Below the pieces are notes generated by a model. The model was not told where the DNA came from. It worked only from the letters and a program-made list of their open reading frames with translations, and ran no database searches. Shown one piece after another: positions 13,826 to 51,084 of a stretch of DNA of 64,000 nt. Numbering within the stretch: the first letter of the stretch is position 1; each line of letters starts with the position of its first letter. The stretch is taken from NCBI GenBank assembly GCA_000146045.2, contig BK006941.2, positions 576,001 to 640,000 on the forward strand, read 5' to 3'. The position numbers were made by a program, and so were the translations under genes. The stretch is from TPA_inf: Saccharomyces. Lineage: Eukaryota.

Positions 13826-14911
13826 ATGTTTTCTGGCTTTAGTTCTTTTGGCGGCGGAAATGGTTTTGTAAATATGCCTCAAACGTTTGAGGAGTTCTTT
13901 AGATGCTACCCTATAGCTATGATGAATGATAGAATACGGAAGGATGACGCAAACTTCGGCGGGAAAATATTCCTGCCACCAAGTGCTCTAAGCAAACTAT
14001 CCATGTTGAACATAAGATACCCCATGCTTTTTAAACTAACTGCCAATGAAACTGGACGTGTGACACATGGAGGTGTTTTAGAATTTATTGCTGAAGAGGG
14101 CAGAGTTTACTTACCACAATGGATGATGGAAACTTTGGGTATACAGCCAGGATCTCTACTGCAAATTTCATCTACTGATGTACCTCTGGGCCAGTTTGTG
14201 AAGTTAGAACCTCAGTCTGTAGATTTCTTGGATATTTCCGACCCCAAAGCAGTTTTGGAAAACGTACTGAGGAATTTCTCGACTTTGACCGTGGACGATG
14301 TTATTGAGATTAGTTACAATGGTAAAACTTTCAAAATTAAGATCTTAGAAGTCAAACCAGAATCATCATCGAAGAGTATATGTGTCATTGAAACAGATTT
14401 AGTAACAGATTTTGCTCCACCTGTAGGATATGTGGAACCGGATTACAAAGCGCTGAAAGCTCAGCAAGATAAAGAAAAAAAGAATTCTTTTGGTAAGGGC
14501 CAAGTTTTGGATCCCTCGGTGCTTGGCCAGGGATCGATGTCCACAAGAATCGACTATGCGGGTATCGCTAACAGTAGCAGAAACAAACTATCTAAATTTG
14601 TAGGTCAGGGACAAAACATATCTGGTAAAGCTCCGAAAGCGGAGCCCAAGCAAGATATAAAAGATATGAAGATAACGTTTGATGGCGAGCCCGCCAAGCT
14701 AGATCTGCCTGAAGGCCAATTATTCTTTGGTTTCCCAATGGTCCTACCGAAAGAAGACGAAGAAAGTGCCGCTGGTAGCAAATCCAGTGAACAAAATTTC
14801 CAAGGCCAAGGGATCTCACTAAGGAAGAGCAATAAGAGAAAAACGAAAAGTGACCATGATTCGTCCAAGTCCAAGGCTCCCAAAAGCCCGGAAGTAATCG
14901 AAATTGACTAA
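13826..14911 (+). CDS. UFD1: Ufd1, Cdc48 cofactor in ubiquitin fusion degradation (361 aa)
   Basis: 361-aa ORF with the conserved UFD1 N-domain (…RCYPIAMMNDRIRKDDANFGGKIFLPPSAL…). Confidence 0.92.
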   Translation: MFSGFSSFGGGNGFVNMPQTFEEFFRCYPIAMMNDRIRKDDANFGGKIFLPPSALSKLSMLNIRYPMLFKLTANETGRVTHGGVLEFIAEEGRVYLPQWMMETLGIQPGSLLQISSTDVPLGQFVKLEPQSVDFLDISDPKAVLENVLRNFSTLTVDDVIEISYNGKTFKIKILEVKPESSSKSICVIETDLVTDFAPPVGYVEPDYKALKAQQDKEKKNSFGKGQVLDPSVLGQGSMSTRIDYAGIANSSRNKLSKFVGQGQNISGKAPKAEPKQDIKDMKITFDGEPAKLDLPEGQLFFGFPMVLPKEDEESAAGSKSSEQNFQGQGISLRKSNKRKTKSDHDSSKSKAPKSPEVIEID

Positions 14912-15313
14912 AAGATATATACTAGTATACAACAATATAGTGTCTTTGACAGATATATAGAGCATTTTCAAGTTAACAGATCTTAGAATCCAAGTATCTT
15001 ATGCATCGCATTAGCTCTGCTGCATTTGCTGTTCGTTTAGTAAAAATAATTACGTGCGCGGTTGCGCGATATTTCCCTTGCTTAATGCCGAAGTAATTCT
15101 CTTCGTTTACCCATACTCGAATCTATTGTGTTGTTGAAAAATAAAAAAAAAAAGAACCAGGTTATATAATTGTGAGTTGATCAGTATATAAATGAGAGAA
15201 AAGAAGTTTCTATTGTTCCAAATTATATCCAAGCTGATTTTTTAACCCTTACCTCACGAAAAGCAAGTTTAAGACAAACACTCATAAGAATCCTTACATA
15301 TACTAAAAAACAA

Positions 15314-15877
15314 ATGCAAGTCTCCCCAGCTATTGTAAAAGGTATCGCAGTCTCATCATTAGGTTTATACGCCGGTATTTTAACTTCATCTACCGTGATT
15401 TCTATTACCACCCCAATAAATGTTCTAACTCAACATTTGAAGAATGTTTTGTGCACATTAGGATGCTGGAGCACCGTTTTAGGTGGTTTAGCTACTGGTG
15501 CCTTTGGACTCAGCTACTATCTAGCTGCACCAGGAGAAAGACCAAACTACCTTTTGTGCGGACTTGGTGTCGCCCCATTATCTGCAGCCTACCTATACTT
15601 AGTATCACTGTTCAATCACAAGCTAGCCCCAAAATGCACACGTGACCAAAATGATTTAGAAAAGCAAAAGGATGAAAAATTACCCCAACATCACCCGGAA
15701 GTCAAAGATGGGGAAGCTGCATGCCCATTCTCAAAGATGAACAACGCCAAAACATTAAAACCTGAATCCGAAAGAAGCGTAAAATGTCACTCATACATGT
15801 CATTGCACATGAGCATTGTAACCGGTATAACAATTTTTACCTTTGGTAAGTGTATCCTAGATGGATTCAAAGCATGA
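15314..15877 (+). CDS. SCM4: Scm4, mitochondrial outer-membrane protein (187 aa)
   Basis: 187-aa ORF with predicted TM segments. Position matches YGR049W. Confidence 0.8.
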   Translation: MQVSPAIVKGIAVSSLGLYAGILTSSTVISITTPINVLTQHLKNVLCTLGCWSTVLGGLATGAFGLSYYLAAPGERPNYLLCGLGVAPLSAAYLYLVSLFNHKLAPKCTRDQNDLEKQKDEKLPQHHPEVKDGEAACPFSKMNNAKTLKPESERSVKCHSYMSLHMSIVTGITIFTFGKCILDGFKA

Positions 15878-16085
15878 ACGACGAAGCACGTGACACGTTC
15901 CCTTCAAACATCACAATTATTTAAGCGAGACTAATATATATGTTTAGCGAAAAAAAAGGCCAAAAAAACTAGTAAATATACAAAGCAGAGTATTTTTGGC
16001 TCTTGTCCACATTGGATAAGAGAATATTTATTTTTCACACAGAAAAAAAAGTTATATACGTATCTCTAAGAAAGTCAAAGACAAA

Positions 16086-16442
16086 TTACGTAGAATGTGA
16101 TTCATTCCCATTTCGCCCGTACACTCTCTGTCTCTGTCTCTGTCCCAAACTTCCCTTCCTATACGTATTCATAATCTGCTTAAACGTCAACAGTAGTTTC
16201 GGAACATCTTCATACGTAGGGAATACGACTTTTTTCTTTTCACCTGCAGCTTGAGCCAAACTAAAACTGGGATCCGGATAAACTATTAATAAAGGATCGC
16301 AAAGTCCATACGCCAGTTTAATGGGAATGAAATGATATTGCGAAGTGACGTCAAGAATCGACTTTAAGCTATATCCGAAGTCAAGAAAGCCGAACCTTAC
16401 ATGCGGTCGGAAAGCAAACGAGGAGATTAGATTGGTTTTCAT
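16086..16442 (-). CDS. YGR050C: Dubious 118-aa ORF, probably non-coding
   Basis: Length and strand match the dubious ORF annotated between SCM4 and FMP48. No coding features. Confidence 0.3.
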
Positions 16443-16591
16443 ATCCGCTAAATTTTCTTTTGATTTTACTTTGGCTTAATCTAATGCATGTATATCGGAA
16501 GAAGCAACCGATCTGGCCCAGTTGAGTCGTGCTACCTTAGTCATGCCCAGGAAAACCGGATTCCTTCTTTTCATTATGACATCCGTTTAGG

Positions 16592-16912
16592 TCAATAGGC
16601 TTTTTTTTCTCTCGCCCGTGCCTCTCCGTGTTCGATGAATGTGCAGCTTGCCTCCGAGCGGGCGAGCCACCTCGAGCGGGTGACGAAATAGTGGAAAAGA
16701 AACGGGGAAGCAAAACTGTGCTGTTCTGGCCCGCAGCGGACGAACGTCATTAAAGGCGCTCCATTTCTGTCGTGAGGGTCTTTCGGTGCGGTGGTGAGGC
16801 TGCGTAAACAAGCTTGCTCTTCATACCCCTCCCGTGGAGCTAGTTCGGAAGGACTATTGGCGCATCTTCTGTTGAGAGGTTCCGTAATTCTCCGTAACGT
16901 CCCGTTCACCAC
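16592..16912 (-). CDS. YGR051C: Dubious ~106-aa ORF lying inside a GC-rich island, probably non-coding
   Basis: Arg/Pro-rich translation typical of a GC-rich non-coding frame. Overlapped by several other short ORFs on both strands. Confidence 0.25.
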   Translation of the reverse strand: MVNGTLRRITEPLNRRCANSPSELAPREGYEEQACLRSLTTAPKDPHDRNGAPLMTFVRCGPEQHSFASPFLFHYFVTRSRWLARSEASCTFIEHGEARAREKKAY

Positions 16913-17362
16913 TTTGCATGTGCTCTCACGTACGGCCGTCTCTTTTCGGCCTTCGGCCCGTTCCGATTTTTGTACCCCTTACGTGCTTTGAATTCTAGAA
17001 GGCATCTCCTCTCCGATGGCTTGGTACAGGGAGCACTAGGGAAATTGCACATGGAAGTATCTGGAATACAAAGTTTTTGAAAAGAAAAGCCGAGCGTAAT
17101 ATTGGGACAATACCCAGTTCTCAGCCTTTTCAGCGCGGGTATGAGACAGCTTGCAACAGGTAAAAGGAAGTTAGAAGGGTTAGGTGAAGGGAACGATGAT
17201 GCTGCCTGAGAACAAAAATGCAGCTTCATGTTACATACAATAAAGGAAGGATAATTAAGGGGACCATGCAATAAGGGACAACTTAATTTTGGAAAAATCG
17301 GAGCTTAGTTGCATCTACCTACTAATACTTTCCCCAAAGAATAATAATACGAGTACAATACA

Positions 17363-17380
17363 TATATATATATATATATA
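17363..17380. repeat. (TA)9 dinucleotide microsatellite upstream of FMP48
   Basis: catatatatatatatatata. Confidence 0.9.
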
Positions 17381-17595
17381 ATATACACATGTAAGTGATG
17401 ACTATTCTTAATACAAAAAAATTTCCCTTTTATAATAACTATTCTTAGCATTAAATAACCCGTTACTGACAAAAAGCATATAACATAGGACTCAAGATCG
17501 ACTCTCATACCCTCCGAATCAAATTCTCACTCGTATACGCAATCATTTAAATAAGCACATCATTATCAGCATATACCGAATAATAAAAAGCAAAA

Positions 17596-18705
17596 ATGTA
17601 TACAAAACTAAGATCTATACAATCAGGAACATTTAGCACAGTTTATAAAGCATGGAGTACTACACATAACCGCTACGTCGCTTTAAAGATTACTCCTAAA
17701 TACAAAACTTCAGAAGCCAACATGAAGAACGAGTATGATGTAATGAAGATTTTGAGTTCTTGTAATCCTCACCCCAACATCTGTTCGATGCTCGACTTTT
17801 ACACGGATGACTCGTACTACATCATGGTGCTAGAATACTGCGAATGTGGTGATCTTTATGACTTTCTAGATATTGCTAAGAGTCAAGGTAGCCCGTCGTC
17901 TCCATCTTTGATTCAAATTGATATGCAAAAGATAATCAAACAACTGTGCTCAGCAATCAGCTTTGCTCACAGCTTGGGTATTGCTCATCGTGATATCAAA
18001 CCAGAAAATATTTTGCTAACGATAAATGGTGACATCAAGTTGGCAGACTGGGGTCACGCTATCCAATCCCCTAAATCTAACGACTTCCAGATTGGTACCG
18101 ATAATTACAGGGCGCCAGAAACTTTCTCTGGCCGCGTTAGTAACTCTTGTTTTAAGAAGAATTTCGATCGGTCATCGGCTCCATTGTATAACACATACCA
18201 AGCTGACTATTGGTCATTGGGTGCCACCATATTTTATCTGATGTTCGGCGATTGCCTTTTTAGAGTCTCCAAATCAAAGAAGGTTCAGCATCTAAAAAAT
18301 TTCGATGAGTTTGAAAAAGATCCATTTGCATTCATTTACAGGAAATACGTAGTACCAAGGCTCTCCTGTGGTTACAATGATGAAGAAGACCTACACGTTA
18401 GCCTGCAGCATACGAGGCAGTACATATGGCAAGATCTACCCGACATTTATGATGTCTTCCATTTGTGCAAGATTATGGTTGATACCTTATTAAAGGTATC
18501 GAACGCTAAAGAGAGGTCGATGGAGAATTTCATCAATGAAGTTGATTCTGCATGGAACAAAGATAGCTCGATGGACAGCTGCTTCTCGTACCAAAATAAG
18601 ATTGATCTGTTTTGGGAACAGTGGTCTGTGAACACGGAAACAGTACCAGCAAAGTTCCAATTGAAAAATTTTGAGAAACCTTGCCTAATTCAAGATGGAA
18701 AATAA
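17596..18705 (+). CDS. FMP48: Fmp48, putative Ser/Thr protein kinase (369 aa)
   Basis: Kinase motifs seen: glycine-loop region, VALK, HRDIKPENIL, DWG and APE. Position matches YGR052W. Confidence 0.88.
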   Translation: MYTKLRSIQSGTFSTVYKAWSTTHNRYVALKITPKYKTSEANMKNEYDVMKILSSCNPHPNICSMLDFYTDDSYYIMVLEYCECGDLYDFLDIAKSQGSPSSPSLIQIDMQKIIKQLCSAISFAHSLGIAHRDIKPENILLTINGDIKLADWGHAIQSPKSNDFQIGTDNYRAPETFSGRVSNSCFKKNFDRSSAPLYNTYQADYWSLGATIFYLMFGDCLFRVSKSKKVQHLKNFDEFEKDPFAFIYRKYVVPRLSCGYNDEEDLHVSLQHTRQYIWQDLPDIYDVFHLCKIMVDTLLKVSNAKERSMENFINEVDSAWNKDSSMDSCFSYQNKIDLFWEQWSVNTETVPAKFQLKNFEKPCLIQDGK

Positions 18706-18985
18706 GAAGTAAAAAAGACCTTTTGAAAGTTTCGCCTCATTTTCCTTGATCTGACTTTTTATCCCCTGCTTATCCAATTTTAGTTAGGAACTTTGGCATA
18801 ATTTCAGTATTACATACTACCTAATCGACATAAAATAATATTACATATTCATTTTTTTAAAAAATAATCATAATCAATTTATCCTTTTTATTCCTTTTTT
18901 CTCCTGTGCAAGGTTGATGGTGATGTTTATGATGGTGTGTTTATTATTTACAAATAAAGATGCTATCTAATTCTTGTATATCGTA

Positions 18986-19837
18986 TTAACATGCAAATGC
19001 ACCGCGAGTGGCAATTTTCTTCTCGTAATGGATCAGTTCAACATCTTCAATGGTATGAACCAGAATTTTCGAATTTTCTTCGTTAAATTCGAATATGAAT
19101 GTTCCCTTAATCAGCCGGGATAATCTCTTTTTTTTACTTCTTTTACCGTCGCCATCATTTTTCTTCTTCTCATCTTCTTTGGAATTTTGAGTTTCGTTGA
19201 CCTTATTTTCCATTGACCTTTCAGCTGCATTTTCAAGGTACTCAGAGATAACACTTTGGTTCAAATTATTGGCTGTAGGATGTAAAATGTAGTCTATGAC
19301 TGGTACCGACCTCATTGAAAATGAACCGCCTGCACCATTGCCTCGTTTCTCCTCTTTCAATCTGTCATTAATTTCTAATTTGGTAATCTTGCAATGGTCT
19401 TCCGGTATGCAGCTTTGCCATTTGATCACCAATTTGTCATTACATGTTATGGTATTATAACTCTGAAGAGCAGATTTAACTTCTTCATCATGCGATGTCG
19501 ATGTTAGAGTCTTTACTGAACTTATATGCAAGCGACATTCATCGCCCAAGATAAACTTTCGTACTATCATTCGCATTGCATTCAAAGAAGCCATGTATTT
19601 TGATTTTCCATGTAACACTGGAATATATGGATGCGATGTTGGAAATAGTCTAAAAACAACGTTATCCGCCAACACTGACTCCTTGAACATTTTTTGTAAC
19701 AAATTGGGAACACCTTTAACCACTAAATAATCTGTTATTTGCCCCAAATTGGCCACTTTTTGAGAATTGGAGTACCATCGAGGAAAGATTCCTTTGATAG
19801 ATATTATGCCGGCTCTGCAAACACACTTTAGTAACAT
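18986..19837 (-). CDS. YGR053C: Uncharacterized protein (283 aa)
   Basis: 283-aa ORF at the YGR053C position. Confidence 0.7.
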   Translation of the reverse strand: MLLKCVCRAGIISIKGIFPRWYSNSQKVANLGQITDYLVVKGVPNLLQKMFKESVLADNVVFRLFPTSHPYIPVLHGKSKYMASLNAMRMIVRKFILGDECRLHISSVKTLTSTSHDEEVKSALQSYNTITCNDKLVIKWQSCIPEDHCKITKLEINDRLKEEKRGNGAGGSFSMRSVPVIDYILHPTANNLNQSVISEYLENAAERSMENKVNETQNSKEDEKKKNDGDGKRSKKKRLSRLIKGTFIFEFNEENSKILVHTIEDVELIHYEKKIATRGAFAC

Positions 19838-20692: not shown

Positions 20693-22621
20693 ATGTCATC
20701 TCAGTTTTTCCTGAAAACCTCTCAGGATATAGAGCTCTTCCAAAGCTACCCAACTTTTGAGCAATCCAACACAAACTCCAAGGATTTCCCTGTCATTTCC
20801 TCGGTTTTATCGCCATGTGGCAGATTTTTGGCTTTATCTACGAAGGAGAACGTCAAAGTTTTTACAGGTCCATGTTTGGATAACGTTCTATTAACAATGA
20901 AGTTGTCCGACGTCTATGACCTACACTTCTCTCCAGCAGGTAACTACTTAAGCACTTGGGAGAGAGCGTCTATACAAGACCCAAATCACAAGAACGTTAA
21001 AGTTTGGTATTTGAATAAACCATTTAAGAAAGATTGCGTTTCGGAGGATATAGTCCCTGCTTACGAATATCAAGCCAAATCCCAAAGCGGTTGGTTTTTA
21101 CAATTCTCCAAATTAGACAATTATGGGCTAAGACTTTTTAAACACGACTTGAAGATTGTTAAATTAAGCTCCGCTAATGCCGACAATTTCGACTTCCAAT
21201 CTCCGTTTGCTGTCTTGTCTGATGATGAAACGTCCCAACATTTCACCACCTACCTAATCTCTCCAGCTGAACATCCAACAATTTGTACTTTCACACCAGA
21301 AAAGGGTGGTAAACCGGCTCAATTAATCATATGGGCCCTCTCTGAAGGTAAAATCACCAAGAAAATTGCCTCCAAAACTTTCTTTAAAGCTGATTCCTGC
21401 CAATTGAAATGGAATCCATTAGGTAATGCTATTTTATGTTTAGCTATTACTGATTTTGATTCCTCAAACAAATCATATTATGGTGAAAACACACTATACT
21501 TACTGTCTTTCCAAGGTGTCAACGGGACTTTGGGTGGTAACTCTGTACGTGTTTCTTTAACCACTGGACCTGTCCACGATTTCACTTGGTCGCCAACTTC
21601 AAGGCAATTCGGTGTCATCGCTGGTTACATGCCAGCAACCATTTCCTTTTTTGACTTAAGAGGTAATGTTGTCCATTCATTACCTCAACAAGCCAAAAAT
21701 ACCATGCTTTTCTCTCCCTCTGGTCATTACATTCTTATCGCCGGGTTTGGTAATTTACAGGGCTCCGTGGAAATCCTAGATCGTCTCGACAAATTCAAGT
21801 GTGTGAGTAAATTTGACGCTACCAACACTTCTGTCTGCAAATGGTCACCGGGTGGAGAATTTATCATGACAGCTACCACTTCACCAAGATTGAGAGTGGA
21901 TAACGGCGTTAAAATATGGCATGTATCAGGCTCTTTAGTATTTGTTAAAGAGTTCAAGGAGCTTTTGAAGGTAGACTGGAGGTCACCATGTAATTACAAA
22001 ACTTTGGAAAACAAAGACGAAGCATTTTTCGAGAACCATATCATTAATAACTGGGAACCGCTACCTGATTCGACCACATCTTCACTTGATCCTAAAATAT
22101 CCAATAAATCAGAATTGCAAATACATTCTAGCGTTCAAGAGTACATAAGTCAACACCCAAGCAGAGAAGCAAGCTCCAATGGAAACGGATCTAAGGCCAA
22201 AGCTGGAGGCGCTTATAAACCACCTCACGCAAGAAGAACAGGCGGTGGACGTATTGTCCCCGGAGTTCCTCCTGGTGCAGCAAAGAAGACCATCCCAGGG
22301 CTAGTTCCGGGCATGAGTGCCAACAAGGACGCCAACACCAAGAACAGGAGAAGAAGAGCCAATAAAAAGTCAAGTGAAACGTCACCTGATTCTACTCCGG
22401 CCCCATCTGCTCCTGCCTCCACAAATGCCCCCACAAACAATAAAGAAACTTCTCCAGAGGAGAAGAAAATAAGATCTTTACTAAAGAAATTAAGGGCTAT
22501 TGAAACCTTGAAGGAAAGACAGGCCGTCGGTGACAAACTAGAAGATACGCAAGTTCTAAAAATTCAAACTGAAGAAAAAGTGTTGAAAGATTTGGAAAAG
22601 TTGGGTTGGAAGGATGAATAA
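20693..22621 (+). CDS. YGR054W: Eukaryotic translation initiation factor eIF2A (642 aa, WD/beta-propeller plus charged C-terminus)
   Basis: 642-aa ORF with the eIF2A beta-propeller region followed by a basic/Ser-rich tail. Confidence 0.88.
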   Translation: MSSQFFLKTSQDIELFQSYPTFEQSNTNSKDFPVISSVLSPCGRFLALSTKENVKVFTGPCLDNVLLTMKLSDVYDLHFSPAGNYLSTWERASIQDPNHKNVKVWYLNKPFKKDCVSEDIVPAYEYQAKSQSGWFLQFSKLDNYGLRLFKHDLKIVKLSSANADNFDFQSPFAVLSDDETSQHFTTYLISPAEHPTICTFTPEKGGKPAQLIIWALSEGKITKKIASKTFFKADSCQLKWNPLGNAILCLAITDFDSSNKSYYGENTLYLLSFQGVNGTLGGNSVRVSLTTGPVHDFTWSPTSRQFGVIAGYMPATISFFDLRGNVVHSLPQQAKNTMLFSPSGHYILIAGFGNLQGSVEILDRLDKFKCVSKFDATNTSVCKWSPGGEFIMTATTSPRLRVDNGVKIWHVSGSLVFVKEFKELLKVDWRSPCNYKTLENKDEAFFENHIINNWEPLPDSTTSSLDPKISNKSELQIHSSVQEYISQHPSREASSNGNGSKAKAGGAYKPPHARRTGGGRIVPGVPPGAAKKTIPGLVPGMSANKDANTKNRRRRANKKSSETSPDSTPAPSAPASTNAPTNNKETSPEEKKIRSLLKKLRAIETLKERQAVGDKLEDTQVLKIQTEEKVLKDLEKLGWKDE

Positions 22622-22951
22622 ACTAGAAGAAACTGATGTATCCATACAACTGTGTAAATATTAACAACGTCAAATAATACTACTTTGAATTGTTTTTTAC
22701 TGTTTCCCAGGAGAATTACGCCAACCTCCCCCCTTTCTTTTTTTCCCTTGTTTTATTGTACTTTTCCACATATTTTTTTAACATCAAATAGTAATTGATA
22801 CATACATAATTAGTGAGCATTTTCCTTATTTTTACGTCTCTTCTTGGCGGATTGCCACCAGCCGCATCTTACAATGTATGCCACGATACCGCCAGGCAAT
22901 AAATGAATATGGAGTGTCACTTCGGCTCCGTAAGCCGGCGCTGCATCCGCC

Positions 22952-22960
22952 ACCACAGTT
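22952..22960 (-). promoter_or_regulatory. Met31/Met32 site (AAACTGTGG on minus strand), about 460 bp upstream of the MUP1 ATG
   Basis: Exact CCACAGTTT on plus strand, which is AAACTGTGG on the minus strand. MUP1 is a known Met4 regulon member. Confidence 0.55.
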
Positions 22961-23137
22961 TTTTTTAGCGTCGCTGTCGCCGCTTTGCCACAGAAAAAGA
23001 AAAAAAAAAAAGAAACGGCGCCGTGTAGGGTTTTGTATAACAGATCGGCCTAGCAGCCAGGAGATGGCACGGCGCCAACTGAAAAGTTAGACTGTGGAAT
23101 TGCCGTTCACCACACTCGAGTGGCATCTAATAAACTG

Positions 23138-23150
23138 CCACAGTTGACTC
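23138..23150. promoter_or_regulatory. Second Met31/32 core (CCACAGTT) immediately abutting a Gcn4-type TGACTC, about 270 bp upstream of MUP1
   Basis: CCACAGTTGACTC. The CTGTGG core and a TGACTC hexamer overlap by one base. Confidence 0.5.
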
Positions 23151-23416
23151 AAGCGGTGCTACCTTCGCAGTTATTGCACACCATGGTAACACATAACACA
23201 GTCTTGCATTACAAATGTGGTTCCTCCTACTTGGCGGTGAATTTCTTGAGTCAGCCCGTTATTTTCATATGGTGATGTAAGATTACATACAGTATATATA
23301 TATAAGGATGATTCTCACACAAACTTTTCCGCTGTTCATCATATTTTGTTTTTGGATTAGTTTCACATTCTGTAGAAATCTTTAAAGACAAGAGAAGAGA
23401 AAACAAAGGCGGAGCA

Positions 23417-33688: not shown

Positions 33689-33907
33689 ATCTGATTTTAC
33701 TATGATTAAACAGACCGAGGGAGAAAAAAAAAAGGAACTAAAAAAGGGCCTACGTAGAAGATGATGTAAAAGTAGATTCGCATCTGAGAATGTTTTCTTC
33801 AAATTTTTCTTTTCGGCCTTGGCGCAGAAGACTTTCTCTTCGTCCGCGTCGTATAGGAAACAAAAAAGTGTAAAAAGTAAAAATCGGTATATTACGCAAT
33901 CCATTCG

Positions 33908-33927
33908 TTACCCGGTGTAGTCACGTG
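33908..33927. promoter_or_regulatory. Reb1-like site TTACCCGG (33908-33915) and Cbf1-type E-box TCACGTG (33921-33927) in the SNR48-ERG25 intergenic region
   Basis: Exact matches to the TTACCCGG and RTCACGTG consensus sequences. Confidence 0.4.
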
Positions 33928-34080
33928 CGGGTGCGGAGGGCAGCCGTTTAAACCCGTTTGGGCCTTGGTCCGATAGAACCATCTCGCAGGAAAGAGCAGA
34001 GCCAGTTATCGGGTGTCGTTTACGCCCAGATGTCGTTTAGCCAGCTCCGCAACGGCCACTGCCACTACCACTGCCTCCCT

Positions 34081-34107
34081 TCGTATACGGGACACAGAGA
34101 TCGTATA
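34081..34107 (+). promoter_or_regulatory. Two direct copies of the sterol regulatory element core TCGTATA (34081-34087 and 34101-34107), about 460-480 bp upstream of ERG25
   Basis: TCGTATACGG is repeated exactly with 20-bp periodicity. TCGTATA is the Upc2/Ecm22-binding SRE core of ERG genes. Confidence 0.55.
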
Positions 34108-34548
34108 CGGTAAACGACTAGCACTAGGACAATAGCAACTAACAATGACCGATAACAGTCAGCAACCTCAAGGCACCTGGCACAAAACCGTCGAGGAAGA
34201 GGCCCTTTGCCACCGTATCGCATCGCTTTCCCACCAATTTTTTTTTTCTTGCTTGCCTCGCCTCTGCTGTGGTCGTATTATTATTATTCATTCTCTGCGC
34301 AGTTTAAACTATATACACACGATTAATCCGTTATGCATGTACATTTTCTTGTATGCGTACGCCTGTGTATGCATACTTCTATATAATATATAATACAGGA
34401 GGATCTATTCTTTTTTTTCTTCTTCTCTTCTTCTCTCCCTTTTTTCTCTCTCTTCGTTTCTTTCCTTCCAGTAAATCTTTATATTAGTTGTAACTTTTTC
34501 TCTTTAGATAGTAGCATAGAGGACTAAGGAAAAGTAGTACAGCCATAA

Positions 34549-46371: not shown

Positions 46372-48786
46372 TTATTTTATTTGGCTAAAAATTTCAATGT
46401 TTTTACTTTGTTTATTGTCAGTTGAAGAAGCTGAGAATTCTTGTGATTCCATGTTTACCTGGGGTGGGACCACTATTGTTTGGACTAAATTGATATTGTT
46501 TCCTGTTGCCCTTAACAATGGTTGTTCCTTCTCTTGTTGCTTAGGGGCCGAGTTCACGTAGGTGTAATTACTCGTTGAGATAGGTTCAATGGCTTTTATA
46601 TCTAATGGGGGCAGGAGAATCTTATTACAGTTTGAATCTCTCTTTAGGAAATTAGGAGAGAGTGGCAAACATGATGCTACTGAAAACGATTTCATATCAG
46701 AAGCACCAGATAAAGAACCTCTTGAAGTCTTGCGAAACGGCTGTTGAAGAGCAAAACAAGACCAATTAGAGATATCAGTCAACAATGCTTTCGTCTGGTC
46801 ATTCAGGTGAGGGGAGTAGATTAAGTATGGGTAAAGAATATTATCTCTTAATGAAGATACAATAGCATGCAGTAGTATATGGTAAGCAATGAAGGAATCT
46901 GACCAAAAATCGAACAAAATGGAGTGTAAGTCTGTCACCAAGTTCTTTTGGTGTGTTATAATGTAGTCATTCACAAACACTTCAACCTTCTCAAATTCCT
47001 CTTTCTCTGTTGATGAAAGGTAGCTCTGACGTTGTACATAAATGGTATCGAACCAGAAATATAACATTAGGTGAACATTGGGGTTTACTAGTAATTGAGA
47101 TACTTGTGATGGTGAAACATCCGAGCTTGCAATTAACTCCGATGAAAACAATTTTAGTTGGAAGCTGACAATGTCGGTAATTAACTGAATATTCCTTGGG
47201 TTTAAAGATGCCAGCGTGAAAGACTTCAAATTAAGAAGCATTGATATGATTGATAAGTTCGTGGTGATCAAGGTTTCATCAACAAATGAGGAAGAATGAT
47301 GAAGTAAGCACGAGGTCGATACCTGTGGAAAGTTATCAATGAACCATATGTTCCTTGTGGTCCCATTTCTCAAAGTCAAGTTGTTGATGAATTCGAACCA
47401 AATCGTTTCCCACAATAACCAGTTACTTTTCGATTTGCAGTCCGTAATCCTGGCGTTCATAACGTTCGCAAATAAAGAGGGGTTTGCACTAGTTTCAGGT
47501 TTGATCGGCTGCTGCATTACGAAACATTCATTCAAGTAAACCAGCAAATCATGCACTCTAAAATCAGATGGCAGCTCTTGCGGATAAGTCTTCTTTATTA
47601 TAAAATACACGTACGCGGAATCTGCCAAAATATTGATATGCTTTAAAGTTAAGTCAGTAGTGGACATTGACGGTCCCTTGTATATGAAGTCCTTAAGTGG
47701 ATTAGACGAAATAAACTCTTGATTGACGAACCAACCAAATATTAGTAAAGAATCGTTGTTGAAGTTGTTTGAATCGCGCAAGATATTGACCCATAGATCG
47801 AATATGAACCATGCATTTTCCTTACTATTCAAATAATGGTAACTGGAGGATGCCACGGTGAATGGCTTCAGAATATCTTGAAGCATTGAAAACACATCGA
47901 ACTTTTTAATGGAATTAGAAACAGGAATGTTATTCTCCAACATTACTAGAAGAGAATAAAATAGAATCAAGGCAAAAACATCATGTTGCTCTGTCTGTGA
48001 CAAAATGTCCTCAGTGTCAAAGTCATTGTCATGTTTAGATGAGCTAGCATACAAATTCGTACAACAGATAAACCATAGTTTTTGAGAATCTTGATTTAAC
48101 GAAATGGACATACCCAGACAAGCTATTATGAGACCAAAAGGCTTGTTAATCCAAAAACTTTCCACCAGCTCGTCATTTTGTAGTGATGAGAACAGGTCTG
48201 GAAAGAAATTTTGGAAGATCTTATTTTCTACCAAGTGGCTTACACCCATTCTGAAGAAAGTTAGAATATCTCTTGAGCTAATAAAATCTAATGAATATTC
48301 TTGCAAAATTTTTACACTGATGGAGGACTCCAACCGGCTTTTAACCTGCTTAAAGCGGCTTTTCCCTTTCTTTAAACTAGAGGACTCCTTCCCAATCACA
48401 CAACGTTGCTGCTTATCCATTTTTTCAACATTACTACTATGATAGTGAATATTGATAAGGCCGCTGTTGACCTTAATCATCGAATTAACGAGTGTTTCCA
48501 TTTTGATATCTCTGGGTGAAGTCGAATCAACGTCACCAACGCCAAGTGATACAGGGATATCAGCCTTATCGCCTGTCATTGACGCGTAACTGGATAAGAG
48601 GAAGGTTCTGTGGACAGTCCTGATGTGTCGCTGTAAGAGATCGCGTCTAACAAAAGAGTGTTTACAGACTTGGCACTGGAAAGGCTTCACGCCCGCATGA
48701 GACCTTTCATGCCTTATCTTGTGCTCGGATCTCGAGAAAGGCTTCAAACAAAAGGAACATATATATTTTTTTTGACCCGCAGCCAT
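46372..48786 (-). CDS. YGR067C: Uncharacterized C2H2 zinc-finger protein, Adr1-like finger pair (804 aa from MAAGQKK; ORF track extends 34 codons upstream)
   Basis: Two tandem C2H2 fingers near the N-terminus (YICSFCLKPFSRSEHKIRHERSH, FQCQVCKHSFVRRDLLQRHIRTVH). Confidence 0.8.
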   Translation of the reverse strand: MAAGQKKYICSFCLKPFSRSEHKIRHERSHAGVKPFQCQVCKHSFVRRDLLQRHIRTVHRTFLLSSYASMTGDKADIPVSLGVGDVDSTSPRDIKMETLVNSMIKVNSGLINIHYHSSNVEKMDKQQRCVIGKESSSLKKGKSRFKQVKSRLESSISVKILQEYSLDFISSRDILTFFRMGVSHLVENKIFQNFFPDLFSSLQNDELVESFWINKPFGLIIACLGMSISLNQDSQKLWFICCTNLYASSSKHDNDFDTEDILSQTEQHDVFALILFYSLLVMLENNIPVSNSIKKFDVFSMLQDILKPFTVASSSYHYLNSKENAWFIFDLWVNILRDSNNFNNDSLLIFGWFVNQEFISSNPLKDFIYKGPSMSTTDLTLKHINILADSAYVYFIIKKTYPQELPSDFRVHDLLVYLNECFVMQQPIKPETSANPSLFANVMNARITDCKSKSNWLLWETIWFEFINNLTLRNGTTRNIWFIDNFPQVSTSCLLHHSSSFVDETLITTNLSIISMLLNLKSFTLASLNPRNIQLITDIVSFQLKLFSSELIASSDVSPSQVSQLLVNPNVHLMLYFWFDTIYVQRQSYLSSTEKEEFEKVEVFVNDYIITHQKNLVTDLHSILFDFWSDSFIAYHILLHAIVSSLRDNILYPYLIYSPHLNDQTKALLTDISNWSCFALQQPFRKTSRGSLSGASDMKSFSVASCLPLSPNFLKRDSNCNKILLPPLDIKAIEPISTSNYTYVNSAPKQQEKEQPLLRATGNNINLVQTIVVPPQVNMESQEFSASSTDNKQSKNIEIFSQIK

Positions 48787-49323
48787 AGCAGTGATAATGC
48801 AAATACAATTACTGTATATCAACAATTGTCTTCTCCCGAGAGAAGGTTTTAAATAAAAGCGACAAGTAAAGCTCTTAAGCCATGCCAACTGGCATGAAGA
48901 AGAACCGAAAAAGAAGAAATAGAAAGCAGAAAAATGTAAAACTAAACTTTATAAGTACTTTGAAGATGCGTTCTATATAAATATGTGGGGTTAAGTGAAC
49001 ATGACTCGAAATCTATAATGCAGCGATTACGATAAGTATCCACATTAAACGTCAATTATTTTGCGTTGTAAGCATATGCGCGGGGGAGGGGGCGCACCCT
49101 TGAAGTGCAGTCTGTCTATCATATTACTGAACCATTTCCTTCGCTTGACTTACATCATTGGCAACACATGCCTGGATCGCTTTAGCGGCTACCTTTAGTC
49201 CATATTTTCTTCTATTACCAGATCCCATCATCCCCCTTTGTCCGATTGACGACCATTTTGCCGCGGACGATCGGAGGGGATTGCCAACGCGGGGTAGCCG
49301 ACTCGGGGCGCCGAGAGCGGGGA

Positions 49324-51084
49324 TCAGTCATCGTCGCAGTAAGCGGGTACGGACCCTGTCACGTAAGACGATGCCGATGCCTGCGCCTGCGCCTGCTCGT
49401 ATGACGGCACTGTCAGTACCACCGAATCGGCGCCGAGCGGCTGTAGCGCCGGCATGAGATGATCGTTGGTGCTCTCGTGATAATTCGGTGGCGGTTGTGG
49501 CAGCGCGAGGTGCGCCGTTGTAGTGGAGTTCAGTTCAACGCCTGGAGTCAGACCCTGCGCGGGGTAAGTGGTTAAAAAAAGGGGTACTAATTCGCCAGGG
49601 CGGAAGTGGATCTTGCCATCGTGTTTATCAAACAACACTAGACGGCCTTTCATAGGCAGATGCGGCGAAATAAATAATAACATAGGTAATTGCGCCTTGA
49701 TCTCCAGGTTCTTGTATTCGCCATCCACTTGACGTTGTAAAAGAATACGTACCTGCAATTTGTGCATGACACGGATTAGGTTGTCTTGCAGACAGCAGTC
49801 TTGAGTTATTTGTTTGAGGTTATCTGGAATTGTAAAGGGACAATCGACGTCAAGTTTGTCCGTCAGCGGGCCGAAGTCCGCTAGATGAGTAATTTTCATG
49901 ACGGCTATTTCATCATCATAAATTTGTGCGCTGCTGTCCTTCATTGCGTAATATTGGATTAGCGCCATTTCTATCCTATCCAAACGAATGTTCTTTTCGA
50001 AGGGGAAAATCTTAATCTTCACGGGGGTTGTGCTACCAATAGGAACAGCCCTACTCGGGATGGACGTTTCGTATTGCAACTTGTCACGCCAAGTATTACC
50101 CACGCTAATTTCTTCTTGCATGGCAAGATTGTCCATCGATAATGTACGAAGGATTCTGAGATACTTGAACTTTTTGATGATAATTTTATTCTTCGTTCTC
50201 ATACCATTGCCGCTCGTACTTGTGCTACCGATTGGACCGTGAGGAGAAGTATGAACGCTCAGATCAGTATCCCATAACTGACGTCCATCTATAATGGCTT
50301 CAAAGGAATACAGTATGCTACCACTTTGTAGTCCCTCGATTGTTTCGCACACTTCTGGGGGGAGCATTGTATTGAAGGGTAGTTCGTAGTTGCCTCTTTT
50401 CATTAGGAATAAGTACGAACTTCCAGACCCGTCTCTGTTACTATAACTATGGCTATTGTTATTGAGGGTGTTACTACTACTGCTTCTACTACGGGCGTTT
50501 TCTCTTAAACCCTCGAAAGGGGTTCCTGTAACACCATTTTCTGGTAGCTCTAGTATTTTTCTGTGGGAAGAATGGGTCTTTCTTCGAATTATTTTGTTGA
50601 AAACAGGGCTCGAAAGTGATCTCTTGCTTAGAAATATTGCGTTGCCGCTGGTGTCCATATCTTGGTTGCTTGTACTGCGACCGCTACTACTGTTATGTTG
50701 ATTTTCCGCATTTTCCCCACCGACTAAAACATCCCCTTTTGAAGAAACCAATAAGTTGTCCCAATAGCATTCGAAAATCTTACGCTTTTCCTTAACTAGA
50801 CTTGCCAAACTACTGCTATTCTTCTTATATCGGCCAACTTGCAAAAACTCCAATTTGAATCTTCCTACCAATCTCAGCGAAATTTTCTTCACTACGATCT
50901 CATTTTTCACTGAAATCACTAAGTTTCCTGATAAAGGTATAGACGACAGTTCCAACGGTGACCCTTGGATCAAAATTATGTCCTTGTACGGGGAGTTTAT
51001 TCTAATATCAAAATAACTTATTCTCTCTCTTTCCTTCTGCTCTGAATGCCCACCGCTGCTAGATAGCGAACTAAGTGAAAACAT
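49324..51084 (-). CDS. ART5: Art5, arrestin-related trafficking adaptor (586 aa, PPxY motif)
   Basis: Arrestin-like N/C domains and a PPPNY motif near the C-terminus. 586 aa. Confidence 0.88.
   Translation of the reverse strand: MFSLSSLSSSGGHSEQKERERISYFDIRINSPYKDIILIQGSPLELSSIPLSGNLVISVKNEIVVKKISLRLVGRFKLEFLQVGRYKKNSSSLASLVKEKRKIFECYWDNLLVSSKGDVLVGGENAENQHNSSSGRSTSNQDMDTSGNAIFLSKRSLSSPVFNKIIRRKTHSSHRKILELPENGVTGTPFEGLRENARSRSSSSNTLNNNSHSYSNRDGSGSSYLFLMKRGNYELPFNTMLPPEVCETIEGLQSGSILYSFEAIIDGRQLWDTDLSVHTSPHGPIGSTSTSGNGMRTKNKIIIKKFKYLRILRTLSMDNLAMQEEISVGNTWRDKLQYETSIPSRAVPIGSTTPVKIKIFPFEKNIRLDRIEMALIQYYAMKDSSAQIYDDEIAVMKITHLADFGPLTDKLDVDCPFTIPDNLKQITQDCCLQDNLIRVMHKLQVRILLQRQVDGEYKNLEIKAQLPMLLFISPHLPMKGRLVLFDKHDGKIHFRPGELVPLFLTTYPAQGLTPGVELNSTTTAHLALPQPPPNYHESTNDHLMPALQPLGADSVVLTVPSYEQAQAQASASSYVTGSVPAYCDDD

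Follow-up and report, generated by a model that had tools for sequence, protein, structure and literature searches.

The window analysed here is the whole stretch of 64 kb of yeast DNA. In it SCM4 ends at 15877, and there is no conserved ORF from there to FMP48. The genes, ORFs and compositional features of the interval are given below, with positions counted from the first nucleotide of the window.

16086 to 16442, minus strand: YGR050C, an ORF of 118 codons, intact only in S. cerevisiae and overlapping invariant footprints
16190 to 17330, unstranded: conserved non-coding block of about 1.1 kb, the proposed FMP48 upstream regulatory region, with the island as its GC-rich middle part
16592 to 16912, minus strand: ORF of 106 codons with a GTG start, overlapping the island, not conserved
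16600 to 17060, unstranded: GC-rich island, 53.8% GC, with a T8 tract at its left edge (16601-16608)
16906 to 17271, minus strand: ORF of 121 codons, 107 from the first ATG (16906-17229), not conserved
17362 to 17381, unstranded: (TA)n tract, the likely TATA region for FMP48, in an AT-rich, poorly conserved proximal promoter
17596 to 18705, plus strand: FMP48 (YGR052W), protein kinase ORF and proposed regulated gene, 99% identical to S. cerevisiae FMP48

Judging by its length, the 107-codon version of the ORF at 16906-17271 is probably the annotated dubious gene YGR051C.

Base composition was measured in 450-bp windows over the 64 kb, giving a mean of 37.8% GC with a standard deviation of 4.3%. 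At 53.8% the island stands about 4 standard deviations above this mean and ranks second in GC among the 450-bp blocks, the top-ranked block being 49218-49667. An earlier note on this DNA had described a GC-rich island without a credible ORF between SCM4 and FMP48, and this description holds, as the only ORFs are short and overlapping, on both strands. Its figure of 55-60% GC is correct for 16590-16960 (55.8%) and for the best 200 bp (58.5%, window from 16614), but slightly generous for the whole 460 bp. The strings that it quoted are all present, namely GTTCGATGA at 16630-16638, AAATAGTGG at 16686-16694 and the G/C-rich strings at 16656-16685, 16948-16965 and 16769-16804. In all seven Saccharomyces genomes compared the island has 53-57% GC, which contradicts a lineage-specific gene conversion, where the high GC would be missing in the relatives. 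In the alignment of these genomes the invariant columns have 51% GC, the variable columns 54% and the gapped columns 59%. The GC is thus not concentrated in conserved sites, and binding sites alone do not account for the composition.

Conservation was evaluated on the same seven genomes. Within 16190-17330, 33% of the columns are invariant, and in the proximal segment 17331-17595, which has 28% GC, the fraction is 13%. Column permutation predicts 1.1 invariant stretches of at least 6 bp in the block (maximum 4 in 1000) where 18 are observed, and 0.12 of at least 8 bp where 6 are observed. The spacer DNA between them is variable and rich in indels. The left half of the island (16600-16870) has no stretch of at least 6 bp that is invariant in all seven genomes, partly owing to a 29-bp deletion in S. 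arboricola. Several of the invariant stretches match CRE, STRE, HSE-like and Hot1-like consensuses; these are motifs of 5-10 bp, and we treat them as candidate sites. The candidate sites and footprints are the following.

16345 to 16353, unstranded: GTGACGTCA, perfect ATF/CREB-type CRE palindrome, invariant in 7/7 genomes, inside the non-conserved ORF YGR050C
16537 to 16543, unstranded: TTAGTCA, AP-1-like (Yap/Gcn4-type) candidate site by consensus only, kept in 6/7
16582 to 16597, unstranded: TCCGTTTAGGTCAATA, conserved footprint, TCCGTTT and TCAATA invariant in 7/7
16660 to 16670, plus strand: GGGCGAGCCAC, which reads GGGCGGGCCAC in five of the other genomes
16679 to 16687: GGTGACGAA, second CRE half-site
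16725 to 16737, minus strand: TCTGGCCCGCAGC, whose reverse complement contains GCGGGCCAGA, with the Skn7 consensus GGCCAGA
16744 to 16750, unstranded: ACGTCAT, CRE half-site, kept in 6/7 and lost by S. arboricola in the 29-bp deletion
16878 to 16899, plus strand: GGTTCCGTAATTCTCCGTAACG, direct repeat of TCCGTAA with a 10-bp period, CGG-type half-sites, GGTTCCGT invariant in 7/7
16952 to 16966, unstranded: TTCGGCCCGTTCCGA, CGG-N6-CCG inverted pair, intact in 5/7
16972 to 16982, unstranded: GTACCCCTTAC, STRE (CCCCT/AGGGG) of Msn2/Msn4 type, the longest invariant block, 11 bp, 7/7
16993 to 17001, unstranded: TTCTAGAAG, two-unit HSE-like palindrome (TTCnnGAA), kept in 6/7; TAGAAG is the invariant part of the HSE-like TTCTAGAA
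17104 to 17111, plus strand: GGGACAAT within TGGGACAATA, Hot1-like, invariant in 7/7
17258 to 17263, unstranded: AGGGGA, second invariant STRE core

The CRE palindrome GTGACGTCA is presumably a candidate site of the type used by Sko1, Aca1 and Cst6. The CGG-N6-CCG pair, in which one half-site is altered in S. uvarum (TCG) and in S. eubayanus (TGG), we assume to be of the zinc-cluster type with Ppr1-like spacing. The string at 16725-16737 is kept in most of the seven genomes, its G+C core tolerating T/C changes at single positions as well as a short gap in S. uvarum and a deletion in S. arboricola; GGCCAGA is a listed Skn7 consensus (PMC6632127). The Hot1-like TGGGACAATA agrees at 9 of 10 positions with (T/A)GGG(A/G)CAAtG, and the S. 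kudriavzevii sequence agrees exactly; this pattern is quoted as the preferred Hot1 ChIP motif in a paper that also disputes its status as the functional site (PMC4462951). Counts of STRE, CRE, CGG/CCG and Mig1-type motifs in the island show no significant excess over composition-matched shuffles. TTCCG is over-represented in the island in four species, and a plus-strand excess of CCGT is specific to S. cerevisiae and was noticed post hoc.

Coding potential was evaluated on the ORFs and on the alignment, and this bears on one option of the earlier note, a decayed gene relic, taken here as that of a protein-coding gene. In favour of such a relic, the GC content is nearer to coding than to intergenic yeast DNA, and the SCM4-FMP48 spacer is 1.7 kb in Saccharomyces compared with 478 bp in T. 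globosa and 567 bp in N. castellii. However, all three candidate minus-strand ORFs have stops in the orthologous frame in 6/6 other genomes, many of them with length shifts that are not multiples of 3. For the 106-codon ORF such shifts occur in two genomes, and YGR050C has 4-7 stops in the orthologous frame across the other genomes. Substitutions in the Saccharomyces alignment show no 3-periodicity (p 0.22-0.58; variable sites by phase 68/80/71, p 0.22), a length divisible by 3 is seen in just 6 of 68 pairwise gaps, and no Pfam domain was found in the ORFs of any frame at E up to 1. T. globosa, L. meyersii, N. castellii, K. africana, N. dairenensis and K. naganishii all have an SCM4-like gene next to FMP48 and no gene called between the two, and the spacers searched in other genera hold no credible ORF. 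This adjacency in six other yeasts argues that no gene was lost at the locus, and we regard a relic as very improbable.

The same note had pointed to many complementary G/C stretches and offered a structured RNA as an explanation. The island is indeed GC-rich, free of ORFs and partly conserved, but the complementarity is no more than the base composition yields: the minimum free energy of 16600-17060 is no lower than in dinucleotide shuffles (z +0.70 on the plus and +0.77 on the minus strand). A search with cmscan against Rfam 15 over 14000-19000 on both strands found no family, the best match in the island having E 0.39 and 20.4 bits where the gathering score is 100. Covariation across the seven Saccharomyces genomes likewise gives no conserved structure. 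No 120-nt window over 16240-17379, on either strand, has a structure conservation index above 0.42, and the mean z values range from -1.0 to +1.2. The RNAalifold consensus energy is -43.9 kcal/mol with a covariation term of just -0.4, and is not better than that of column-shuffled alignments (z -0.88 plus, -0.19 minus). RNAalifold pairs changed on both sides number 10 against 5.7 in within-column shuffles, which is the one count in favour of structure, although that structure was chosen from the same alignment. The strings at 16660-16670 and 16725-16737 form an inverted pair in which compensatory change is absent, and the pair GCGGGCCA / TGGCCCGC varies on one side, uncompensated. RUF-type ncRNAs, which came from screens based on stability or on comparison, share with the island an intergenic, ORF-free position and flagging as possible ncRNA. 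They were picked at a folding z of -3.5 or below and confirmed by RACE or northern blot (PMC2603021), unlike the island with its z of about +0.7 and no conserved structure. Identity with RUF20-23 was rejected, all of these being on chromosome VI. An unannotated structured ncRNA gene has accordingly a very small probability.

Of a Pol III-bound or extra-TFIIIC (ETC) site the island has the intergenic position and the GTTCGA core of a B-box, which is held by GTTCGATGA, together with an A-box-like end in AAATAGTGG. Both strings fall outside the limits used, as the island contains no match to the B-box GGTTCGANTCC within two mismatches or to the A-box TRGCNNAGTGG within one, and they stand in the wrong order. 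Over the whole window there are 24 B-box-like matches, fewer than the 34.6 expected from shuffles. Unlike in ETC sites, the core is not conserved between species: GTTCGA is shared by S. cerevisiae and its closest relative alone, the other five genomes having diverged at this site. ARAGORN found no tRNA-like gene. We therefore regard the Pol III option of the earlier note as extremely improbable.

The most likely reading, which was absent from the options considered earlier, is that the island belongs to the upstream regulatory region of FMP48. We give a probability of roughly 0.58 to the view that it forms the distal, GC-rich portion (about -540 to -1000 from the ATG) of an unusually long multi-input region extending over 16190-17330. 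The block lies upstream of the gene that it would regulate and outside conserved ORFs, and it carries short invariant blocks amid diverging sequence. Directly observed are the composition and its retention between species, the pattern of footprints, their agreement with consensus motifs, and the lack of any RNA, Pol III or coding signature; that factors bind here, that the block belongs to FMP48 and not to a divergent transcript, and that the GC has a nucleosome role are inferred. The island looks largely ordinary as part of such a control region, rather than like an unseen RNA gene, a Pol III site or the remains of a gene.

In the proposed mechanism, sites for stress factors would be scattered over the block: Sko1-type CRE/ATF sites, Msn2/4-type STREs and the HSE-like palindrome, and further the Hot1-like GGGACAAT, the Skn7-like GGCCAGA and several CGG-type zinc-cluster half-sites. 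Through these sites, transcription from the AT-rich, TATA-like proximal promoter (about 17330-17595) would be activated or held back. GC-rich DNA is expected to favour nucleosomes, and the GC-rich background between the sites may therefore favour nucleosome occupancy. Nucleosomes would keep the sites covered until stress signalling, by Hog1 and others, recruits remodellers, as in inducible 'covered' promoters.

Published expression data are consistent with a stress-responsive gene. FMP48 is induced by osmotic stress (PMC3441895), and 4.2-fold by active Hog1 alone, and it was proposed as a Hot1 target (PMC4462951). It has been singled out because its expression, unlike that of most genes, shifts in a typical TF-induction experiment (PMC7076914). 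Furthermore, the ygr051c deletion is listed as beneficial in chemostat evolution/competition work (bioRxiv 10.1101/014068); this fitness effect indicates that the underlying DNA is not inert. We found no reporter, ChIP or chromatin experiment on the FMP48 promoter in the searchable literature.

Two classes of known promoters were used for comparison. Long multi-input Pol II upstream regions, such as that of STL1 with its Hog1-responsive element at -654 to -592, resemble FMP48 in having regulatory sequence far from the ATG (hundreds of bp to over 1 kb), short conserved sites in fast-evolving spacer and a TATA-like proximal promoter at a Hog1/stress-induced gene. HO, FLO11 and IME1 have further regions of this long, multi-input kind. 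FMP48 differs from them by its 460 bp at 54% GC in a 38% GC genome, kept across species. Promoters with an occupied proximal nucleosome (stress, TATA) are likewise inducible, with high expression plasticity and an AT-rich TATA region downstream; at FMP48 the GC block is instead distal, not at the proximal nucleosome. AT-rich sequence is usual in yeast promoters, and it is uncommon for a UAS to lie 600-1000 bp from the ATG; both facts count against the regulatory reading.

Two further explanations have to be weighed against control of FMP48 by bound factors. The conserved block could be transcribed into an unstructured regulatory ncRNA, and FMP48 would then be influenced by the act of transcription and not by any structure of the RNA. 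A CUT/SUT/XUT, a divergent transcript over YGR050C and a 5'-extended FMP48 isoform are candidates. Such transcription is compatible with the promoter reading and draws on the 1.7-kb spacer with its conserved sequence far from the ATG and on the altered fitness of the ygr051c deletion. In addition, YGR050C is a minus-strand ORF found only in S. cerevisiae and lies directly left of the island, a position and strand that make a divergent transcript plausible. Against it, the interval has no entry in the supplements of two papers on ncRNA deletion collections, and the down-regulation of FMP48 in npl3 mutants is reported as not attributable to readthrough or intergenic transcription (PMC4687934). 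The literature searched on YGR050C, YGR051C and FMP48/YGR052W, these supplements included, holds no transcript, ChIP or hotspot record for the interval. We judge such an ncRNA to be rather unlikely. The other explanation, that a long-lived meiotic hotspot in a large promoter has raised the GC through GC-biased gene conversion and that the GC itself is functionless, would agree with a GC richness that is regional and as strong in variable and gapped as in invariant columns, and with a composition that is kept across genera where the sequence is not. The equilibrium GC estimate for the island (0.37-0.49) is also above that of the flanks (0.30-0.42), but it is below the present 0.54-0.58, and GC-to-AT changes equal or outnumber AT-to-GC changes in 4/4 polarised comparisons, a slight excess on small counts. 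The substitutions thus lend no positive support to the gene conversion named in the earlier note. Biased gene conversion is reputedly weak in S. cerevisiae, and most promoters that bear hotspots are AT-rich. This explanation is quite unlikely.

The upstream regions of FMP48 in other genera were inspected for the same composition. The 200-bp window with the highest GC in the locus examined falls upstream of FMP48 in K. africana, K. naganishii and N. castellii alike; these spacers account for 18%, 10% and 3% of their loci, respectively. There is no alignable sequence between the Saccharomyces, Kazachstania and Naumovozyma upstream regions, and the k-mers in common are just low-complexity A/G-rich words. 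Among short strings, K. naganishii and N. castellii also have GCGGGCCA[C/G]A within their GC peaks, and a 10-mer of 16725-16737 recurs in N. castellii. It may be that Saccharomyces, Kazachstania and Naumovozyma have all retained a GC block of a few hundred bp at a comparable distance from the ATG since about the time of the whole-genome duplication. That base composition itself, and not sequence, has been under long-term selection upstream of FMP48 is a tentative idea which we consider possible but doubtful. If true, the region would offer a clear natural case of a nucleosome-encoding 'closed' promoter module, or else of a non-coding transcript that depends on composition, serving as a conserved regulatory device for a signalling-hub kinase.

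The value of the regulatory reading is mostly one of tidying up, in that what looked like a possible hidden RNA gene or a Pol III site makes better sense as part of the FMP48 control region. It has consequences for the two dubious genes: YGR050C and YGR051C overlie conserved regulatory DNA, and a changed regulation of FMP48 is therefore the probable cause of their deletion phenotypes. This kinase gene has been described as a hub-like regulator responsive to most perturbations, and the logic of its promoter is for this reason worth knowing. With high GC kept across AT-rich genera without sequence conservation, the promoter is also a convenient test of selected, GC-encoded nucleosome affinity. 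Selection on composition would fit both the full turnover of sequence between the genera and the observation that variable sites are as GC-rich as conserved ones.

The GC-rich island at positions 16600-17060 is most likely (probability about 0.6) the GC-rich portion of a long regulatory region upstream of FMP48. The ORFs around it are:

13826-14911, plus strand, UFD1-type gene
15314-15877, plus strand, SCM4
16086-16442, minus strand, YGR050C, 118 codons
17596-18705, plus strand, FMP48 (YGR052W), protein kinase gene

The kinase shares 99% identity with FMP48 of S. cerevisiae, therefore the placement between SCM4 and FMP48 in the earlier note is correct. Short overlapping ORFs are listed across the island. 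The GC content is 53.8% over 16600-17060, 55.8% over 16590-16960 and 58.5% in the best 200-bp window. Windows of 450 bp across the whole 64 kb have a mean of 37.8% (sd 4.3%), which places the island about 4 sd higher and second among 450-bp blocks, and CpG observed/expected is 1.08 compared to 0.80 for the whole window. The GC enrichment first read from the sequence is thus borne out, and every string quoted at that time was found where it had been placed.

The top-ranking block is 49218-49700 (59.6% over 450 bp, 67% over 200 bp from 49260). This block takes in the 3' end of a minus-strand ORF of 586 codons (49324-51084) and about 100 bp downstream of that ORF, lies upstream of an 838-codon minus-strand ORF (46372-48888), and carries several Mig1-like SYGGGG strings in its non-coding part (GAGGGG, GCGGGG twice, TCGGGG). 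Ranks three to six are taken by 33815-34265 and 22016-23300, with 51% and 47-48% over 450 bp.

Orthologous loci were fetched using FMP48 and its faster-evolving neighbour YGR053C as handles. SCM4-FMP48 spacers were obtained from S. kudriavzevii (L001), S. arboricola (L007), S. uvarum (L011), S. eubayanus (L012), a close relative of S. cerevisiae (L009, spacer 81% identical) and a member of the uvarum/eubayanus clade (L003, Logan SRR17907836). Identity of the L003 spacer reaches only 86% with S. uvarum and 83% with S. eubayanus, therefore L003 is a third lineage of this clade or a divergent population. Outside the genus, the FMP48 locus was taken from T. globosa, L. meyersii, N. castellii, K. 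africana, N. dairenensis and K. naganishii.

The orthologous position is GC-rich in all seven Saccharomyces genomes (53-57% over the island). The island is real and conserved in composition, not a chance fluctuation. Invariant columns (51% GC) are no richer than variable (54%) or gapped (59%) ones, therefore the GC content is a regional property outlasting sequence turnover. In three other species the top-GC 200-bp window of the fetched locus falls in the spacer upstream of FMP48: K. africana (54.5%, locus mean 36.8%, spacer 18% of the locus), K. naganishii (59.5%, 45.5%, 10%) and N. castellii (61%, 36.9%, 3%). N. dairenensis has a weak rise only, and no GC contrast marks the spacer in T. globosa and L. 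meyersii, which are non-duplicated and richer in GC. Between genera nothing in the upstream regions is alignable beyond A/G-rich words, except for the element GCGGGCCA[C/G]A common to Saccharomyces, K. naganishii and N. castellii.

Island identity to S. cerevisiae ranges from 85% in the closest relative to 64-67% in the uvarum clade, only slightly above the flanks. The island forms just the GC-rich middle of a non-coding block of about 1.1 kb, 16190-17330, in which 33% of the seven-genome columns are invariant and very unevenly spread: 18 invariant blocks of at least 6 bp were found, where column permutation gives 1.1 (at most 4 in 1000 permutations), and 6 of at least 8 bp (0.12 expected). 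Such short invariant blocks amid indel-rich DNA are the classic phylogenetic footprint of putative transcription-factor sites. The best-conserved part is not the island but 17061-17330 (44% invariant, 40% GC); the remaining 265 bp up to the FMP48 ATG are 28% GC and 13% invariant and contain a (TA)n tract. This microsatellite (17362-17381, about 215-235 bp upstream of the ATG) differs in length and sequence in every species compared.

Putative factor sites and repeats among the invariant or nearly invariant blocks, the sites assigned by matches to established consensus sequences
16345, GTGACGTCA, perfect CRE palindrome
16537, TTAGTCA, AP-1-like
16679 and 16744, GGTGACGAA and ACGTCAT, CRE half-sites
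16725, TCTGGCCCGC, complement contains GGCCAGA, putative Skn7
16881-16897, direct repeat TCCGTAA-N3-TCCGTAA
16954-16965, CGG-N6-CCG pair
16972, GTACCCCTTAC, STRE core
16993, TTCTAGAAG, HSE-like
17104, GGGACAAT, Hot1-like
17258, AGGGGA, STRE core

GGCCAGA is given as a Skn7 consensus (PMC6632127), and the string at 17104 matches the preferred Hot1 ChIP motif (T/A)GGG(A/G)CAAtG, quoted, with its function questioned, in PMC4462951. Counts of such motifs inside the island are not above those in composition-matched shuffles. In S. arboricola a 29-bp deletion (about 16732-16760) takes out the conserved CCGCAGCGGA...ACGTCAT...GGCG including the CRE half-site, and in the uvarum clade GGGCGGGCCAC is followed by 7-9 inserted bases, rich in G, and 8 bp are deleted at the PDRE-like string CCCGTGGA.

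A long upstream region with putative CRE, STRE, HSE-like and Hot1-like sites would be expected for a gene regulated as FMP48 is. Constitutively active Hog1 by itself raises FMP48 expression 4.2-fold, and FMP48 belongs to the nine genes that were first put forward as Hot1 targets (PMC4462951). High-glucose osmotic stress induces it as well (PMC3441895). Unlike most genes, it is described as changing its expression in a typical TF-induction experiment, and it acts as a hub-like regulator (PMC7076914). Deletion of YGR051C, counted among beneficial deletions with dominant effect (bioRxiv 10.1101/014068), takes away part of the conserved block; this is consistent, indirectly, with a cis-regulatory role of the block. 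The island can be likened to complex stress-gene promoters, the one mildly unusual feature here being a composition that is conserved without the sequence. Intrinsic nucleosome affinity is dominated by G+C content, and we therefore prefer the explanation that the GC-rich background would help nucleosomes to cover the distal sites in an inducible promoter of the TATA type.

Transcription across this DNA into an unstructured regulatory RNA is a rather unlikely reading and one compatible with the promoter reading. That a recombination hotspot with biased gene conversion drives the GC content is a minor, improbable alternative: polarised substitutions, in small counts, give the island an equilibrium GC (0.37-0.49) above that of the flanks (0.30-0.42) but under the present 0.54-0.58, and GC-to-AT changes slightly exceed AT-to-GC changes, a result that lends biased conversion no positive support. 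Lineage-specific conversion, to be expected if relatives lacked the high GC, does not agree with its retention in all seven. A lost or decayed gene is very improbable. An SCM4-like gene adjoins FMP48 in the non-duplicated T. globosa (478-bp spacer) and L. meyersii (1095 bp) and in the post-duplication N. castellii (567 bp), K. africana (1993 bp), N. dairenensis (3439 bp) and K. naganishii (1159 bp), with no called gene or credible ORF in these six spacers; therefore no ancestral gene was lost here, and this synteny is the decisive evidence against the relic previously suggested. Stop codons interrupt the orthologous frames of the minus-strand ORFs 16592-16912, 16906-17271 and YGR050C in each of the six other Saccharomyces genomes, and many of these frames differ in length by a non-multiple of three. 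A period of three bases is not seen in the substitutions (p 0.22-0.58). Of the 68 pairwise gaps in the island, only 6 have a length divisible by three, and no ORF translation matched Pfam at E up to 1.

The suggestion of a structured ncRNA, made from complementary G/C stretches, did not hold up and is highly doubtful. No Rfam family came near its threshold at the island, and the 461-nt fold is no more stable than dinucleotide shuffles (z +0.70 and +0.77 for the two strands). In 120-nt windows over 16240-17379, both strands, seven genomes, the structure conservation index never exceeded 0.42 and mean z lay between -1.0 and +1.2. RNAalifold on 507 columns gave -43.9 kcal/mol with a covariation term of -0.4, an energy equalled by column-shuffled alignments (z -0.88 plus, -0.19 minus). 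In its favour is a small excess of doubly changed pairs (10 vs 5.7) on a structure chosen on the same alignment; most are single events common to the three uvarum-clade rows. In the inverted pair GCGGGCCA (about 16662) and TGGCCCGC (about 16727) one arm varies with no compensating change. A Pol III or TFIIIC-bound (ETC) site is equally remote: ARAGORN found no tRNA in the 64 kb, the island has no match to the B-box consensus GGTTCGANTCC within 2 mismatches, and the string described as A-box-like differs from TRGCNNAGTGG by more than 1 mismatch. B-box-like matches in the whole window are fewer than in shuffles (24 vs 34.6 expected), and the GTTCGA core is retained only in S. cerevisiae and L009.

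Spacer length varies seven-fold from T. globosa to N. dairenensis and is about 1700 bp in Saccharomyces; no ORF in the N. dairenensis spacer reaches 70 codons. Only S. cerevisiae has an intact YGR050C; the other six genomes carry 4-7 stops in its orthologous frame. The ORF overlaps invariant footprints at 16200 (CGGAACA), 16275 (CGGATAAACT) and 16345 (GTGACGTCA) and gives the impression of being species-specific, on top of conserved regulatory DNA. Two minus-strand ORFs, neither conserved, could be the dubious YGR051C: 16592-16912 (106 codons, GTG start, no ATG start) and 16906-17271 (107 codons from the first ATG, 16906-17229). The latter fits the length of 107 codons that we take YGR051C to have. 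Directly after the SCM4 stop, at 15886-15894, lies CACGTGAC, an E-box of the Cbf1/Pho4 type present in most of the Saccharomyces compared.
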